This document shows, piece by piece, positions 42,860 to 50,017 of a stretch of 64,000 bases of DNA (its first letter is position 1; each line of letters begins with the position of its first letter). The translations under genes and the position numbers were made by a program. The DNA comes from an uncultured delta proteobacterium (lineage in GTDB: Bacteria; Desulfobacterota; RBG-13-43-22). The notes under the pieces are model-generated. The model did not search any database, had not been told where the DNA came from, and saw nothing but the letters and a program-made list of their open reading frames with translations. The stretch covers positions 288,001-352,000 of the forward strand of contig CAWDKY010000017.1 in assembly GCA_963802945.1 (NCBI GenBank), in the 5' to 3' direction.

Positions 42860-43174
42860 GTTAACTCACGTACAAGAATACAATATGATGGTTGGGATCA
42901 GAAGAGCTATTAAGGAGTCCGCTTGTTTTAGGCTCTTAGGGCCGATACTAAAGATGATCAGATTGTAATCTTCAGTTAAAAACGGGGTGCTGAATTTGGC
43001 GACTTTAGAAAGAAGTCAAAGGCCGCTCTACGATCAGATGAGACGGCTTGAAAGTATTTCCATAGATGGTAAGGGAAAGAGCATCCTCTTTTCTTTTTGA
43101 CGAAGCCTCCGAAAGACGTTACTATAGAAAACGTTGATGTTCTTTTGATAATAAACAGCCAGGAGGAATATCCT

Positions 43175-44833
43175 ATGACCGTAAAGTTATTGATAATCGG
43201 TGGTGTCGCGGGCGGGGCAACTGCTGCCGCCAGGGCCCGCAGGCTTGATGAATTTACTGAGATTATTCTCTTCGAAAGGGGGGAATACATATCCTTTGCC
43301 AACTGCGGCCTGCCCTATTACATAGGGAACGTAATAAAAAATCGGGACGATCTGCTGGTGACAACAGCGGAGGCATTCAAGGCCAGGTATAATATAGATA
43401 TAAGGATTTTCACAGAAGTGATAGGGATAGACAGGCTTCATAAACGGGTCAAGGTTAAAGATGTCATGACAGGAAGGGTATATGAAGAGACCTATGACAA
43501 AATTATACTTTCTCCAGGCGCTGAGCCTGTAAAACCCCCTATCAAAGGCATTGATCTGGAAAATATCTTCTCCCTGCGCAATATCCCTGACTCGGATCGG
43601 ATCAAGGCCCGTGTAGACGCCGACAGGCCTAATTCGGCGGTGATCGTCGGAGGCGGATTTATAGGACTTGAGATGGCAGAGAACCTTGTAATCCGGGGTG
43701 TAAAGACAACCATTGTTGAGATGCTTGACCAGTTAATGGCACCTCTTGATTATGAGATGTCGGTGATGGTTAGGGACCATCTGGAACAAAAGGGAGTCTC
43801 ATGTTATCTGGAGGAGGGGGTTGCGGGTTTTTCAGAAAAGGAAGGGCTTATCATTGTCCATACGGAAAAAAACAGGAATATAGAATGTGACCTGGTTATC
43901 CTGTCCATTGGGGTAAGGCCCGAGAACAGACTTGCCAGGGATGCCGGTCTGGCCATAGGAAACAGGGGAGGGATAAAGGTAAATGCGGCCATGAGGACAT
44001 CTGATTCGGATATATATGCCGTGGGGGATGCCGTGGAGATAAAAGACTTCATCTCAGGACTGCCGACCATGACGGCCCTTGCAGGCCCGGCTAATAAGCA
44101 GGGACGCATCGCGGCTGATAACGCCCTGGGAGGCAAATCCGTGTTTAAGGGGACCATAGGGACAGCGGTGGTAAAACTCTTTGACCTTACCGTTGCCTCT
44201 ACTGGGGCGAGCGAGAAGTCCCTGAGGCAAAACAATATCCCTTGTATGGTAAGCTATACCCACTCCAATTCCCACGCCTCCTATTATCCCGACGCTCAGA
44301 TGATGGCGATAAAGTTGATTTTTTCGCCATCAAACGGAAGGATTTTAGGGGCTCAAATCATCGGGATGGAGGGCGTGGACAAACGTATCGATGTATTAGC
44401 CACAGCCATAAGGGGCTCCATGACTGTTTTTGATCTGGAGGAACTTGAACTGGCCTATGCACCACCCTATTCATCGGCAAAGGACCCTGTTAATATAGCA
44501 GGATTTACGGCATCGAACCTTTTAAAGGGGGATGTGAGAAATATTTACTGGAGCGATATTCAAGGTCTTGACCCTGAAAAAGATGTCCTTATTGATCTGC
44601 GCGATAAAGTAGAACTGAATGACTCCGGAACTATCGAAGGATCGCTGAATATACCTTTAAATGAACTGCGCAAAAGGCTGCCTGAACTTGATAAAGAGAA
44701 GAACTATATTCTTTTTTGCGCTGTCGGCCTGAGGGGATACCTTGGCCACCGTATCCTTGACCAGAACGGATTCAAATCCAGAAACCTGAGCGGGGGATAT
44801 AAGACCTATATGATGGGCAGGGAAAAGATATGA
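43175..44833 (+). CDS. CoA-disulfide/persulfide reductase with C-terminal rhodanese domain (Npsr/CoADR-RHD)
   Basis: GGVAGG, SFANCGLPY, GGGFIGLE, GD, YAPPY, rhodanese CAVGLRG. Confidence 0.92.
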   Translation: MTVKLLIIGGVAGGATAAARARRLDEFTEIILFERGEYISFANCGLPYYIGNVIKNRDDLLVTTAEAFKARYNIDIRIFTEVIGIDRLHKRVKVKDVMTGRVYEETYDKIILSPGAEPVKPPIKGIDLENIFSLRNIPDSDRIKARVDADRPNSAVIVGGGFIGLEMAENLVIRGVKTTIVEMLDQLMAPLDYEMSVMVRDHLEQKGVSCYLEEGVAGFSEKEGLIIVHTEKNRNIECDLVILSIGVRPENRLARDAGLAIGNRGGIKVNAAMRTSDSDIYAVGDAVEIKDFISGLPTMTALAGPANKQGRIAADNALGGKSVFKGTIGTAVVKLFDLTVASTGASEKSLRQNNIPCMVSYTHSNSHASYYPDAQMMAIKLIFSPSNGRILGAQIIGMEGVDKRIDVLATAIRGSMTVFDLEELELAYAPPYSSAKDPVNIAGFTASNLLKGDVRNIYWSDIQGLDPEKDVLIDLRDKVELNDSGTIEGSLNIPLNELRKRLPELDKEKNYILFCAVGLRGYLGHRILDQNGFKSRNLSGGYKTYMMGREKI

Positions 44834-44954
44834 CAAAAGGATGTAGGAATGTCCTACGGCCGGGGATTAGGGAAGAGACAATCTGTTCAAAGATAAACGG
44901 CAAGAGTATAGAAGAAGGGAAAATTTATCCCTCACCCGGAGGGTCTTTATCAGG

Positions 44955-45218
44955 TCAGACCTTGGGGTTGGCGCCTTCTGGAAGTAAAGGAGGCAGCAAG
45001 AAAGAGTCAGGATTATGGGGCTTGGCTTCTGGGGTGACCATTGGAGAAACGGATGTGTCCGGACCTGAAGAATTTTTTTCCTCTTGAGAACACTCCTGCT
45101 GGGGATTAACCGGAACGGGGGTGGGATCTTTCTTGTCCAGGGCAAAAGAAAAAGACCCTAATAGAAAAAAAACAATAAAAGCCAGGGGCAGTTTCTTTAA
45201 TTGGTTTAAATTGGTCAT
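44955..45218 (-). CDS. Small secreted Pro-rich hypothetical protein
   Basis: AGGAAGG RBS, signal peptide ending SFA, low-complexity mature part. Confidence 0.5.
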   Translation of the reverse strand: MTNLNQLKKLPLAFIVFFLLGSFSFALDKKDPTPVPVNPQQECSQEEKNSSGPDTSVSPMVTPEAKPHNPDSFLLPPLLPEGANPKV

Positions 45219-45509: not shown

Positions 45510-46403
45510 TTACGGCTCGACGGGTGCCTTGGGGTCTTTCATCCACTCCTCTGTTGATCCATCATATGTTTTTACGTTTTTATAACCCAGAAGATCGGTC
45601 ATGATAAAGGACCAGGCCGTGGAAACCTTGCCCGTATCGCAATAGAGGATGACCTCTTTGTTCGTGTCCGCTCCAATGACTGCTGTCACAAGGGCAGCGA
45701 GGTCCGCTTTGCTTTTAAATAGCCCTTCTTTTGTGTAGGCTTGTGAAGTCGGGAAATTGACCGCTCCTTTGATTCTCCCCGGTTTGGCGACGAAATCCAT
45801 TTTCTTTATTCCCTGGTAGAAATCAAGCTCTCTGACATCAACGATCATAACCTTACCGATGGCATTCATAACATAGTCTTTATTGGCGAGCATAACTTCC
45901 TTGGCCTTGACTTGATACTTAGTCGGTTTGGATTTTACTAGGTCTGTGGAAAGGGTCTTTTTATCAGCTGCCCACTTGTCGAAACCTCCATCCAGGATAG
46001 CCACATCCCCGATACCTGCGTATTTGAGAGTCCAGGCAACCCGAGAGATATCGGTGCGGTTCGGGATCGTATCGGCTTTTCCAACGATAACGACCAGCGA
46101 TTCGGGACCAATACCGGCGGCGCTGATAACATCAGAGAGGTCGTCCAAAGGGGGGATCTCGTTTCTCAAACCGCCTTTCATAATAGCCCAGGAACCATAG
46201 ATGACATTGAGCGCCTTGGGGATATGCCCAGTCTTATAATCTTCGACCTTCCTGATGTCGACGATGATAAGTTTCGGGTTATTGATATTTTTTTCCAGCC
46301 AATCGGTGGATACAATGGGTTCGATATCTCTCGCCATGGAGGCGAAAGGAATGATGAGCCCAAGAAGAACTAAAACGAGGCTAAGCCTAAGTGATCTTTT
46401 CAT
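45510..46403 (-). CDS. Secreted tandem-domain rhodanese/sulfurtransferase
   Basis: Signal peptide ending ASMA, GHIP.A, LDGG..KW, active-site YCDTGKVS, YDGS..EW. Confidence 0.92.
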   Translation of the reverse strand: MKRSLRLSLVLVLLGLIIPFASMARDIEPIVSTDWLEKNINNPKLIIVDIRKVEDYKTGHIPKALNVIYGSWAIMKGGLRNEIPPLDDLSDVISAAGIGPESLVVIVGKADTIPNRTDISRVAWTLKYAGIGDVAILDGGFDKWAADKKTLSTDLVKSKPTKYQVKAKEVMLANKDYVMNAIGKVMIVDVRELDFYQGIKKMDFVAKPGRIKGAVNFPTSQAYTKEGLFKSKADLAALVTAVIGADTNKEVILYCDTGKVSTAWSFIMTDLLGYKNVKTYDGSTEEWMKDPKAPVEP

Positions 46404-47677
46404 TATTTTTCTCCTTTTATTGGTTTTGGTTTATAAAGTAAACATTCGTTTGCTTTGGAACCGTTCTTGATCAGAGCTTCTTTTGTCAGGAAACCTTTAT
46501 TCTCGACATGGCAGATCTCGCAGGAACGGGTCCGGTCGGTTCTCTTTTTAATGTTGTGTGCTGTTGTGTCCCAGTAGTTGGGGAGCGTGTCGTAACGGTT
46601 CATTTTAATCCCGGCGCTTTTAAAGGTGTCCCGGACTGTAGGGGTAAGCCGCAGGGTCGTTATAGTTTTTTTGTCTTTGGAGCTTAAACCGAGAAAGAAG
46701 TCCGGTTTGGATGTGGCCCCTTTTCCCAGGTGACAGCTGTAGCAATTTCTGTAAGCTCCTCCGGAGTGGCAGGCATAGCAGCTTACCCTGTCCTTGTGTT
46801 GGGCGTGGGAGGTCTTGGCCTTTTCCGTCTTTTCATCTCCCGCCTTATGACAGTTGATGCAGGCCGGCTTTTCCTTCACTTCCTTTTTTGTTTTGTAGGC
46901 CGTTGAGGTGCCATGAAATTCCGCCTTCTTATGGCAATCCAGGCAGGTCATTCCCTTTTGATAATGAATATCGGCCGCGCCGCCATACTCGCCTGTGAAT
47001 TCCGGGTACACCCGGCCTCCATGGCATACGGCACAGGTCTTTCCGTCATCCCTGGCGACGAACTTGTGATTCTGAATAAAACCTGTGCTGATCCCGCTTA
47101 CCTTGGGGGATTTTACATGGCAGTCGCCGCAGGAGGCATGACAGCTCCTGCAGGATTGCTGGAATACCTTTTTGTCGAATATCCCCAGATCTTTTTTTGA
47201 GAACCTTCCTGAAACTCCATGGCGAAAGCCGGCAGTGGTGAAATGAAGGGAGTTTTTATAGGTCTGGGGTGCATCTTCATGGCATTGGCCGCAAAGCTTA
47301 TGATCTGCTGAAGGTTTTTTCACCACCCCGATATGGGCCTTGGACTTATCCTCGGCCTTATCATTCCCCTTGTGACAGAAAACGCACCCTCCGACTAAAT
47401 GGGGTTCGGTTTTGATCAGCTTTTCATCAACAAGGAACGCTTTATATTGCAGTTCCGCCGGGACCGACGGAGGGGCACCTGCTCACCCTTCCCCGGCTTC
47501 GATGGCTACCTTAACGGGTTTGTGGAGCGTCTGGAGCAGCTTTTCACTCGTGTGGCATTTCACGCAACTGCTTTCGCCGGCGTAGGTCAAGTAAAAAGAT
47601 AAGGAAAGAGAGGCAACCAGAAAACCAACAATGGTCCATACTATCTTGGTTTTTCTTTTTACCTGAACAGATTTCAT
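46403..47677 (-). CDS. Secreted 11-heme cytochrome c, predicted selenoprotein (TGA 47485-47483 = Sec65), 424 aa
   Basis: ORFs 47483-47692 and 46403-47326 are in one frame joined by TGA and 52 open codons containing another CxxCH; 11 CxxCH motifs in total; SECIS-like hairpin follows the TGA. Confidence 0.85.
47449..47482 (-). promoter_or_regulatory. SECIS-like hairpin
   Basis: GCAG/CUGC lower stem, UCCGUCG/CGGCGGA upper stem, GUCC apical loop 18 nt after UGA. Confidence 0.75.
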
Positions 47678-47753
47678 GAAACCCTCGGTCAATAGACAAT
47701 AGAACGCAACCTTTATTATACAGCATTAAAAAGGCAGGTCATCAAACTCTATA

Positions 47754-48116
47754 TTATCCTTCATGGCATCCGTGCTCATGTTGACTGCAGGCAATTCCGG
47801 AATCGCTCAATTTGCCTGTGAGCCAACTTTCGGCAACATTTTTTACATTGCCGGAACATCCTCGCAAAACCTGGATGCCGTGGCTGGTTAAAACATTTAC
47901 TGCTCCTTGTCCCATATTGCCGGCCAGCATATATTTTACACCCATTTGTGCCAATATTTGAGCAATATCTGATTTACAGCCACAACCAGCCGGAGGTGTA
48001 ATCCTTTCCTCTGAAAGTATTTTGTTTTTGTCACCAATAGTGAAAACCGTGAAGCATTCGCAATGCCCAAAGTGTTCATCCACCTGATCCTGACATGAAG
48101 GTAATGCTATTTTCAT
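47754..48116 (-). CDS. NifB/NifX-family metal-binding protein
   Basis: MKIALP...VDEHFGHC, GCGCKS, LAGNMG.GA, C..H.H.CH tail. Confidence 0.88.
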   Translation of the reverse strand: MKIALPSCQDQVDEHFGHCECFTVFTIGDKNKILSEERITPPAGCGCKSDIAQILAQMGVKYMLAGNMGQGAVNVLTSHGIQVLRGCSGNVKNVAESWLTGKLSDSGIACSQHEHGCHEG

Positions 48117-48460: not shown

Positions 48461-48479
48461 ATTGCATGGAGGAAAATAT

Positions 48480-48797
48480 ATGGAGGATAGAATCATTGCC
48501 TTGGAGGCAGAAATTTTAAAGGCCCTGGCCCAGCCCACTCGATTGAAAATCCTCGAATGCTTACGTGAAGGGGAGCGGTGCATCTGCGAGATCGTGCCGG
48601 TTATTAACGGCGAGCAATCCAACATCTCCAGACATATTTCCCTGATGCAGAAAACCCGATTAATTTCTTCACGCAAGGACGGAGTGAAGGTCATGTTGAA
48701 GATTCAAGATCCGCAGATTTTCGACCTCCTGGATCGGGTAAATAAAATTTTGAAGAGGCAGATGCAAGAACAAAATAAATTAATGGCGAAATTGTAA
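48480..48797 (+). CDS. arsR: ArsR/SmtB-family repressor
   Basis: KALAQPTRLKIL..L..GERCICEI...QSNISRH; heads ars operon. Confidence 0.88.
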   Translation: MEDRIIALEAEILKALAQPTRLKILECLREGERCICEIVPVINGEQSNISRHISLMQKTRLISSRKDGVKVMLKIQDPQIFDLLDRVNKILKRQMQEQNKLMAKL

Positions 48798-48818
48798 TCT
48801 GCCGACAAGGAATGATTT

Positions 48819-49766
48819 ATGATTAAATATTTGGCCGACTTATTGGTTTATCAGTGGATAGGAATTCAGTCTGGGACCAGGTTGGGAGAATCTTTAGACT
48901 TTTTCTTCTATGATACTATAAAAGTTTTTTTGCTCCTCATAGTAATTATTTTTGTAGTGGCGATCATACGGAGTTTCTTTCCCCCTGAGCGCTCACGTAA
49001 ACTGCTTGGTCATCGAAGGGAGTATGTAGGAAACTTTCTGGCAGCTTTATTGGGCATCGTTACGCCCTTTTGCTCCTGCTCCGCCGTACCGATGTTTATC
49101 GGCTTCATCGAATCGGGTCTGCCTTTAGGCATAACTTTCTCTTTTCTTATTTCCTCACCGACTGTAAATGAAGTGGCTCTGGTCATGCTCTGGGGCTTGT
49201 TTGGATGGAAGATTGCCCTTCTCTATACCGCTACAGGGGTTGTTATGGCCTTTTTTGCCGGTATCGTTATCGGAAAATTGAAATTAGAGCATCTGGTTGA
49301 AGAATATGTTTACCGGATCAAGATGGGTGAAGCGGAAATGTCCGTTCCTACCTGGAAAGAAAGGCTGGAATACGCTCGTGACTATACGAAAGATATACTC
49401 AGACGGGTATGGTTGTTCGTTCTTATCGGCATTGGATTAGGGGCCTGGATTCATGGTTATGTTCCTATGGATTTTATTATAAAATACGCAGGGCCCGGCA
49501 ACCCATTTGCCGTGTTTGTGGCGGTTCTTATCGGCATTCCCTTATACTCTAACGCCGCTGGGACAATCCCTATCGTTCAAGCCCTGGTAGAAAAAGGACT
49601 TCCTATGGGCACGGCGCTGGCTTTTATGATGTCCTTTGTGGCCATATCGACGCCCGAGTTGATTATCCTGCGCAAGGTTATTAAACCGAAGTTGATTGCT
49701 ATTTTCGTCGGGATTGTCTCTGTGGCGATTATCATCATCGGCTATCTGTTCAATGCCGTTTTATAA
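48819..49766 (+). CDS. arsP: ArsP/DUF318-family permease
   Basis: TPFCSCS.VP, FSFLISSP.VNE, GIPLYSNAAG. Confidence 0.85.
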   Translation: MIKYLADLLVYQWIGIQSGTRLGESLDFFFYDTIKVFLLLIVIIFVVAIIRSFFPPERSRKLLGHRREYVGNFLAALLGIVTPFCSCSAVPMFIGFIESGLPLGITFSFLISSPTVNEVALVMLWGLFGWKIALLYTATGVVMAFFAGIVIGKLKLEHLVEEYVYRIKMGEAEMSVPTWKERLEYARDYTKDILRRVWLFVLIGIGLGAWIHGYVPMDFIIKYAGPGNPFAVFVAVLIGIPLYSNAAGTIPIVQALVEKGLPMGTALAFMMSFVAISTPELIILRKVIKPKLIAIFVGIVSVAIIIIGYLFNAVL

Positions 49767-49783
49767 AGAGGAGGTAAAGAGTC

Positions 49784-50017
49784 ATGAAAAAGATCGAAGT
49801 ACTTGGAATGGGTTGCGCCAATTGCACTAAGTTATATCAAAATGTATTGGCAGCGGTCAAGCTGAGCGGTAATGAGGTAGAAGTTGCCAAGATTGAGGAT
49901 ATTCAAAAAATCATGTCCTATGGGGTGATGTCCACACCGGCTTTGGTCGTGGATGGTGTCGTCAAAGCCGTAGGCAAAATTCCGAAACCGGAAGAAATAA
50001 AGGAATGGATTAAATAA
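49784..50017 (+). CDS. Small thioredoxin-fold redox-active disulfide protein
   Basis: GMGCANC, YGVMSTPALVVDG. Confidence 0.9.
   Translation: MKKIEVLGMGCANCTKLYQNVLAAVKLSGNEVEVAKIEDIQKIMSYGVMSTPALVVDGVVKAVGKIPKPEEIKEWIK

Follow-up and report, generated by a model that had tools for sequence, protein, structure and literature searches.

A probable selenocysteine-containing eleven-heme cytochrome c encoded beside a periplasmic rhodanese in an uncultured Desulfobacterota bacterium

The 64,000-nucleotide stretch of DNA analysed here (the window; positions 288,001 to 352,000 of contig CAWDKY010000017.1, from an uncultured Desulfobacterota bacterium) is highly likely to encode a selenocysteine (Sec)-containing multiheme cytochrome in a rhodanese operon, a statement that concerns the identity of the protein and not its substrate. 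The gene lies at 46403..47677 on the minus strand, which from 47692 to 46403 forms a single frame with one internal stop, the TGA at 47485-47483 (feature 47483..47485). This codon, number 65 of the gene and translated in the context EAGEG-U-AGAPP, is read as selenocysteine on the basis of its conservation among homologues. The joined product runs from the ATG at 47677, which follows a GAGG-like motif by a few bases, to the TAA at 46405-46403 and comprises 424 residues, about 43 kDa before the hemes are counted; translation could also begin at the TTG at 47692. The listing of open reading frames (ORFs) instead splits the locus into two minus-strand entries, 47483..47692 and 46403..47326.

The joined protein contains 11 CxxCH motifs (CVKCH, CVFCH, CGQCH, CRSCH, CGDCH, CAVCH, CLDCH, CINCH, CYACH, CYSCH, and CEICH), one upstream and ten downstream of the TGA. 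The heme 1 motif CVKCH (residues 38-42; 47552..47566, minus strand) precedes the UGA and is kept in 103 of 103 aligned members, while hemes 2-11 are encoded by the part that follows it (46406..47482, minus strand), of which gene callers annotate only 46403-47326. From the TGA to GTG 47326, where the called ORF starts, 52 open codons intervene; their protein sequence is conserved and includes the heme 2 motif CVFCH, so that starting at this GTG would drop them together with heme 2. A predicted signal peptide or anchor (residues 1-33; 47579..47677, minus strand) is found only in the part before the UGA; as read from the translation, it opens with the K/R-rich MKSVQVKRKTK, continues into a hydrophobic stretch that ends in TYA/GE, and coincides with a helix in the AlphaFold2 model (residues 3-30). 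A hydrophobic N-terminus also occurs in 20 of 20 distant homologues, some of them of the lipoprotein type. Two Pfam multiheme models are matched above their thresholds, PF14522 at 45.5 bits (threshold 24.8) and PF14537 at 37.4 bits (threshold 25), and by its CxxCH motifs, Pfam score, and predicted export signal the predicted protein is a multiheme c-type cytochrome (Pfam Cytochrome_C7 / Cytochrom_c3_2). The original prediction had described two ORFs that are one frame broken by this TGA, an open 52-codon interval holding CVFCH, and a 424-residue product with a signal peptide and 11 heme motifs; the translation agrees on the frame and the interval, the same motifs were found again, and the signal peptide was read from the sequence.

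Conservation of the in-frame TGA carries the main argument for selenocysteine. Genomes were scanned one per species, yielding 399 loci that encode a relative, of which the best 80 were examined. The codon aligned to the window TGA is TGA in 78 of these 80 species-level loci, CGA in one (L050), GCA in one (L087), and TAA or TAG in none, as expected if homologues of the joined protein keep the codon at the aligned position. Homologues run at full length across the TGA in all 80 loci, an intact frame together with the preceding heme 1 is seen in 79, and the joined frame holds 11 CxxCH motifs in the same number; the exception, L059, is broken upstream and has 10 motifs. The two loci with sense codons at the site encode full-length proteins. 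Of 401 genomes sampled evenly over the phylum, 56 have a match at E 1e-20 or better; exactly one internal TGA is present in 45 of 45 matches that reach the N-terminus (a count that includes the window and one partial match), and 14 stop-free matches span the central heme region only. Conservation extends to distant loci: in each of the 20 fetched, the aligned codon is again TGA, the surrounding residues read GEG-U-GG-x-V-x-P-L, and one heme motif precedes the TGA while nine or ten follow it; those distant homologues that were aligned share 30-37% identity with the window protein. An in-frame UGA with coding conserved on both sides, the pattern expected of a selenoprotein gene, is therefore present in this predicted family.

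The same pattern explains how database entries represent the gene. Among the 120 best database homologues, 113 are about 309-362 residues long and cover 72-83% of the query, and seven are full length; five of the shortened entries were aligned, and all begin just after the TGA. The anticipated splitting of the gene by standard callers is borne out by these entries.

A hairpin resembling a bacterial selenocysteine insertion sequence (SECIS) lies directly 3' of the UGA (47454..47471, minus strand), as identified by minimum free energy folding and comparison. Its 7-bp stem, UCCGUCG/CGGCGGA, is formed by arms at 47471-47465 and 47460-47454, which enclose a GUCC loop at 47464-47461; the stem begins 11 nt and the loop 18 nt past the UGA. 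Across 79 TGA-bearing sequences of the subfamily, 86.4% of the stem cells are paired, versus 28-55% when the 3' arm is slid. Synonymous sites within the stem hardly vary: 76 of 79 sequences use CCU at codon +4, although CCU accounts for 14% of Pro codons in the rest of these genes; 76 of 79 use CCG at codon +5, versus a baseline of 36%; the third base of codon +8 is G in 79 of 79, over Pro, Arg, Lys, and Ser codons; and that of codon +9 is likewise G in 79 of 79, GCG being 29% of Ala codons elsewhere in these genes. Third bases in the loop and just beyond the stem vary freely.

At the same distance from the UGA, a sister subfamily has another hairpin, GGCUCC-GUUG-GGAGCC, in which 97.1% of the cells are paired (30-52% in slid controls), compensatory changes occur in four of six pairs, and the covariation score is reached by none of 500 shuffles. 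The encoded peptide alternates between VAPLEP and VEPLAP with the pairing preserved. G-U in the loop is common to both hairpins. Bacterial SECIS elements are stem-loops that follow the UGA immediately, carry a G in the apical loop, and are spaced as this hairpin is; by that geometry, a candidate SECIS stem-loop is present 3' of the UGA, and it exceeds chance by comparison (the conserved TGA and the near-frozen synonymous stem sites), not by energy. The hairpin with a GUCC loop that had been noted 18 nt after the UGA is thus located where it was placed, with synonymous constraint in its own subfamily and covariation in the sister clade.

The genome encodes a tRNA-Sec with the anticodon UCA, selA (627 bits), selD (392 bits, with an in-frame TGA of its own), and selB, the N-terminal part of which scores 266 bits. 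The selB gene (contig C30, 178945-180834; positions 220-2139 of its extracted locus, minus strand) appears as three ORFs of 254, 160, and 260 residues, and its middle part stays open and conserved for about 160 codons. A gene resembling the alpha subunit of formate dehydrogenase (contig C11, 18689-20360) is also split in two, with a TAG inside one match; the presence of this second split gene besides selB makes assembly indels likely. Another such gene (contig C15, 494473-495423) contains one in-frame TGA and is likely a selenoprotein gene. Global recoding of TGA was considered and is ruled out, as TGA terminates 499 of 1505 long ORFs and the sole tRNA with a UCA anticodon is tRNA-Sec. Among public sequencing runs, the best share of the words of the stretch was 0.15, no RNA run was listed as containing it, and contigs from four runs gave no useful cover of 47483-47485. 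Of the selenocysteine machinery that the original prediction had expected, tRNA-Sec (selC), selA, and selD are present, while selB is present in a frame-broken form.

The residues that replace selenocysteine differ between distant and close relatives. Cysteine occupies the Sec column in eight of 11 distant proteins spanning the site, and the remaining three carry Pro, His, and either Gly or Arg depending on the alignment. The seven full-length close Sec-less proteins carry R, S, A, W, Y, W, and A, with no Cys among them; a single base change leads from TGA to R, S, or W, and equally to Cys, yet none of the close relatives has taken the last. Members of one 90% cluster carry Tyr or, once, Asn at the site (P0079, P0150, P0153, P0155, P0158, and P0162; context GE[KGRI]-Y-[AT]-G-T-P), and the same cluster includes shortened members of 346 residues, which presumably bear the TGA. 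The Sec-less forms are read here as occasional losses of the Sec function with retention of the electron-carrying protein. Loss of the Sec machinery as their cause fails for L050, whose genome retains selA; in the genome of L087 no selA was detected, but this is a metagenome-assembled genome of 1.9 Mb. Absence of the rhodanese from the two Sec-less loci is likewise ruled out, a second-type rhodanese lying beyond the next gene in both. In MccSep, the characterized five-heme selenoenzyme of Geobacter sulfurreducens, the U-to-C variant is as dead as the U-to-A variant (PMC13510729), so Cys need not be a viable substitute. The expectation of TGA or Cys at this position accordingly holds for the loci examined (TGA in 78 of 80) and for most distant homologues, and does not hold for the few close Sec-less relatives, in which varied non-Cys residues were found; TAA and TAG, which would equally have spoken against selenocysteine, were absent.

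Several observations weigh against the assignment of selenocysteine at codon 65. The energy of the window hairpin is unremarkable (z = -0.33, with 65 of 200 shuffles folding as well); two-sided changes affect only two of the seven stem pairs in its subfamily, a number equalled by 379 of 500 shuffles; and a search of Rfam at a permissive threshold returned two chance-level matches and no SECIS family. The two compensating frame changes in selB make intact Sec decoding in this genome a prediction from sequence, and selA occurs in 371 of the 401 phylum genomes, so that co-occurrence with the Sec machinery does not discriminate. The sense codons CGA and GCA in two of 80 loci, one of them in a selA-bearing genome, the Tyr or Asn cluster, and above all the non-Cys residues of the close Sec-less relatives would be unusual for a catalytic selenocysteine.

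These residues speak for decoding of the UGA by a near-cognate tRNA (for Trp, Arg, Cys, or another amino acid), with the hairpin merely stimulating read-through, because W, R, and S in the close relatives are single-base neighbours of TGA and Cys is missing. The broken selB fits such decoding as well, and the loop at the site, predicted to be flexible (pLDDT, the predicted local distance difference test score, under 50 at residues 58-69), may tolerate many residues. Near-cognate decoding is nonetheless very unlikely, given that the stop is TGA in all 78, 20, and 45 cases of the three surveys and never TAA or TAG, that the hairpin is placed as in a bacterial SECIS (11 nt to the stem, G-U in the loop), and that Cys occurs in eight of 11 distant homologues while tRNA-Sec, selA, and selD are present; unless selenocysteine itself confers a benefit, it is difficult to see why a leaky stop would be kept over such divergence and not drift to a sense codon. 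If the TGA were instead a true stop, the locus would encode a 64-residue monoheme peptide and a leaderless ten-heme protein (nine-heme from the GTG at 47326), or it would be a pseudogene or an assembly error. Attachment of c-type hemes requires export, and the downstream part has no signal peptide; the 52 codons past the TGA show conservation of their protein sequence and encode heme 2; the frame continues past the TGA in 79 of 80 species-level loci and in every one of the 20 distant loci; the same error could not have arisen independently in about 140 genomes; and the two sense-codon loci encode the full-length protein. Agreement with gene-caller output, including the 113 of 120 shortened homologues, and the lack of read coverage of the codon in the public runs compared do speak for termination, which overall is extremely unlikely.

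The predicted selenocytochrome is followed on the minus strand by a gene for a periplasmic tandem rhodanese (45510..46403; Pfam Rhodanese, E 1e-32, in two stretches) of 297 residues with a signal peptide and a single cysteine, the catalytic Cys255, in a C-D-x-G motif. The rhodanese ATG overlaps the cytochrome TAA (TAATG), and the two genes are a predicted two-gene operon with translational coupling. A rhodanese gene is adjacent and co-directional in 64 of the 80 loci (61 downstream and 3 upstream) and occurs in the cluster in 71 when a second type further along is counted; among the distant loci, Pfam identifies it immediately downstream in 18 of 20, a number that rises to 19 with L110, where it was found by tblastn. 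Cys255 is retained in 65 of 66 rhodaneses. The window rhodanese scores 50.8 bits against the ExtH model NF040901, below the cut-off of 200, and, matching both ExtH and thiosulfate-sulfurtransferase types weakly, it is a generic tandem rhodanese. In many Syntrophaceae/Smithella loci (L039, L044, L053, L055, L061, L074, L075, and others) the pair belongs to a larger conserved cluster that encodes, in order, an FAD_binding_2 flavoprotein, a 7-heme c3 protein, the Sec-cytochrome, the rhodanese, a 7-heme protein, a second rhodanese, and a 13-heme cytochrome; this 7-heme protein has about 650-900 residues, judged from stop-to-stop ORF lengths, and three internal repeats.

The gene arrangement suggests how the protein may function. 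UGA codon 65 would be decoded as selenocysteine with the help of the hairpin 11 nt downstream, and Cys255 of the rhodanese would take up sulfane sulfur from polysulfide, elemental sulfur (S0), or thiosulfate as a persulfide. A mobile selenolate, for which the GCUG arm of thioredoxin reductase offers an analogue, would then attack this persulfide, or polysulfide directly, to give an Se-S intermediate, and electrons supplied through the 11-heme chain would reduce the intermediate and release sulfide. This role, the reduction in the periplasm of polysulfide or of sulfane sulfur that the rhodanese delivers, is given about an even chance, drawn from gene neighbourhood and analogy; other substrates (tetrathionate, thiosulfate, or selenite) and a ligand or tuning role for the selenocysteine take up most of the remaining probability. 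The peptide per heme, about 3.9 kDa by our arithmetic, places the protein in the "peptide-minimized" class, whose members are all described, in the available part of the source (PMC7096707), as electron carriers and not as enzymes; as far as that part goes, so low a ratio would leave little room for a buried active site, which counts against catalysis.

Structure prediction places the selenocysteine in a flexible Gly-rich loop, G-E-G-U-A-G-A-P-P, between hemes 1 and 2. With 44 close sequences, AlphaFold2 gave a pLDDT of 59.9; a more diverse alignment raised the mean pLDDT to 76.4, with a predicted template modelling score (pTM) of 0.68. In these heme-free models the Sec loop (residues 58-69) stays below a pLDDT of 50. 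One known structure, 1sp3 (OTR), aligns to model residues 90-424 with a Z of 6.9 (241 aligned residues, root-mean-square deviation 4.8 A), weak by the standard of the tool, and the next row has a Z of 2.9. Foldseek against the PDB also ranked 1sp3 first, at E 0.059, with nothing at E 0.001 or better; when PDB sequences were searched with a profile, the matches were all local ones to heme motifs, led by 5ze8 at E 7e-7. All 11 CxxCH motifs and nine further histidines are invariant in the 103 aligned members; Met243 is mostly retained (Lys in four of the 103 sequences), and there is no further conserved Cys, making the selenocysteine the only extra chalcogen residue. As nine His, one Met, and one Sec together equal the number of hemes, the selenocysteine may have a heme-ligand role.

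A genuine selenoprotein with another role is a minor but serious possibility, in which Sec65 would be an axial heme ligand that tunes potential or gates electron flow, or in which the substrate would be a different chalcogen compound (tetrathionate, thiosulfate, selenite, or tellurite). OTR and TsdA act on tetrathionate or thiosulfate, and the Ext cluster acts on selenite or tellurite. The shortage of histidine ligands (nine invariant non-motif His, the mostly conserved Met243, and Sec65 for 11 hemes, with no other conserved Cys) points in this direction, as does the standing of 1sp3 as the only structural neighbour that stands out in both searches; the weak resemblance of the rhodanese to both ExtH and thiosulfate-sulfurtransferase types, and the ability of MccSep to reduce selenite too (PMC13510729), widen the choice of substrate. 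The count of ligands from an alignment is indirect, the models contain no heme and have low confidence in the Sec loop, a Z of 6.9 is within the range that the tool calls common, and a structural ligand would hardly be expected to give way to A, S, R, or W in relatives. Within this possibility, it is doubtful that Sec65 binds one of the heme irons axially, in the resting state at least, to form a natural His/selenolate c-type heme. The Se-Fe bond would in that case open on arrival of the rhodanese persulfide or polysulfide, allowing chalcogen chemistry on the iron, and the family would point to a hidden capacity of syntrophic Syntrophales and Syntrophorhabdales to reduce sulfur or selenium.

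The family occurs in 43 of the 401 sampled phylum genomes and ranges over Syntrophales, Syntrophorhabdales, Geobacter/Desulfuromonadales, and Nitrospirota genomes. One homologue (L081) belongs to Geobacter sp. OR-1, whose record, in contrast to most of the loci, carries no metagenome-assembled label. The 20 other genomes of the class to which the window belongs yielded no match to the gene at E 1e-30 or better, and the closest homologues (72-81% identity) come from other Desulfobacterota lineages; this patchy distribution suggests that the gene has spread horizontally. The region surrounding it has no unusual GC content. Loci L106-L111 form a distant subfamily with lipoprotein-type signal peptides (for example LLAAGC and FLITGC), by which its members may be membrane-tethered rather than soluble.

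Existing annotation does not capture the family. In NCBIfam, no model reached its cut-off with the window protein, with six distant members, or with the Cys-type proteins, and the matches obtained, to ExtM/N/O, DmsE-type decahemes, and OTR, are weak and local. The annotations encountered miscall the gene as a shortened "cytochrome c3 family protein" or "sulfurtransferase"; one source labels the shortened cytochrome ORFs P0008, P0009, P0066, P0094, P0151, and P0152 as "thiosulfate/3-mercaptopyruvate sulfurtransferase", a label apparently transferred from the neighbouring rhodanese. The available part of a table of prokaryotic selenoproteins in a 2026 review lists three heme-related families, ExtKL, GSU2204, and OTR (PMC13188914), and of those listed there, none matches the present family. 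The literature searched does not describe the family, and the MccSep paper was the sole description of a multiheme selenoprotein found in it. The cytochrome very probably represents a large unannotated selenoprotein family that is nearly always linked to a rhodanese.

Other features of the locus surround the gene pair. A candidate promoter, ATGACC-16-TATAAT, with 10 of 12 consensus matches, lies directly 5' of the cytochrome gene (47715..47742, minus strand). Downstream of the rhodanese, an ORF of 87 residues and uncertain status (44955-45218, minus strand), matched in none of the 80 loci, is followed by a predicted terminator-like hairpin 3' of the cluster (44929..44943, minus strand). Beyond it, 43097-44833 (plus strand) encodes a flavoprotein resembling coenzyme A-disulfide reductase with a C-terminal rhodanese domain (TIGR03385, 507 bits, cut-off 578.8), a cytoplasmic protein of the persulfide- or polysulfide-reductase type that adjoins the cytochrome in one of 80 related loci. 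The upstream neighbour (47754-48116, minus strand) encodes a small protein with a Pfam Nitro_FeMo-Co (NifX/NifB-C-like) domain, and 48462-50017 (plus strand) encodes an ArsR-type regulator, a permease of 315 residues, and a CxxC thioredoxin-like protein of 77 residues, all named from their translations; each of these four lies beside the cytochrome in two of the 80 loci at most.

If selenocysteine is confirmed, the family would provide a concrete gene for a possible reduction of sulfur, polysulfide, or selenium in syntrophs, a group not known for such chemistry. It offers a natural test of the choice of selenocysteine over cysteine beside hemes, and it raises the possibility of a selenolate-ligated heme. 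A new curated model is needed to keep annotation pipelines from splitting these genes.

Among known systems, OTR (1sp3, TIGR04315) is the sole outstanding structural neighbour of residues 90-424 and, like the enzyme proposed here, is a periplasmic multiheme protein that works on S-S bonds. Local matches to TIGR04315, at 20-38 bits, are seen with distant family members, the window protein itself has no match to this model (cut-off 375 bits) at E 0.01 or better, and the available part of the review table lists the OTR family as having selenoprotein members (PMC13188914). OTR has eight hemes, however, and the present protein 11, with the module of heme 1 and the selenocysteine lying outside the aligned part. 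TsdA and SoxAX, with a His/Cys-ligated heme (cited in PMC13510729), compare by analogy only, a chalcogen side chain beside or on a c-type heme handling S-S chemistry; there the ligand is Cys, whereas here it would be Sec in a hypothetical ligation.

The closest parallel is MccSep (ExtKL), a five-heme Sec enzyme that is encoded beside the rhodanese ExtH and serves as a polysulfide reductase in Geobacter sulfurreducens, and also reduces selenite (PMC13510729). Published in August 2026, it is the only multiheme cytochrome selenoenzyme characterized, and the present family would be the second, unrelated to it in sequence. Like MccSep, the present protein is a periplasmic multiheme cytochrome c, with one predicted UGA-encoded selenocysteine on a flexible loop of the Gly/Pro kind; in each family, gene callers break the gene at the UGA, a SECIS-like hairpin follows at a short distance, and a periplasmic rhodanese is linked in the genome. 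Desulfobacterota and Nitrospirota genomes carry both. The architecture is distinct, as the original prediction had held: the ExtKL/MccSep model NF040886 (cut-off 250 bits) does not match the window protein at E 0.01 or better and has no matches across the whole genome at E 0.001 or better. MccSep has five hemes and its homologues, by the text of the paper, are five-heme only and of Sec and Cys types (PMC13510729), whereas the present protein has 11 hemes and its close Sec-less relatives carry residues other than Cys. The selenocysteine of MccSep, U325, lies in a C-terminal Ig-like domain, in contrast to Sec65 of 424 in a Gly-rich loop after heme 1, and MccSep has a heme-ligating C239, whereas no non-motif Cys is conserved in the 103 sequences aligned here. 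The present system, independent of MccSep by sequence, would do the same job on an unrelated scaffold and would have arrived at the same combination of a heme chain, one selenocysteine on a mobile loop, and a periplasmic rhodanese.

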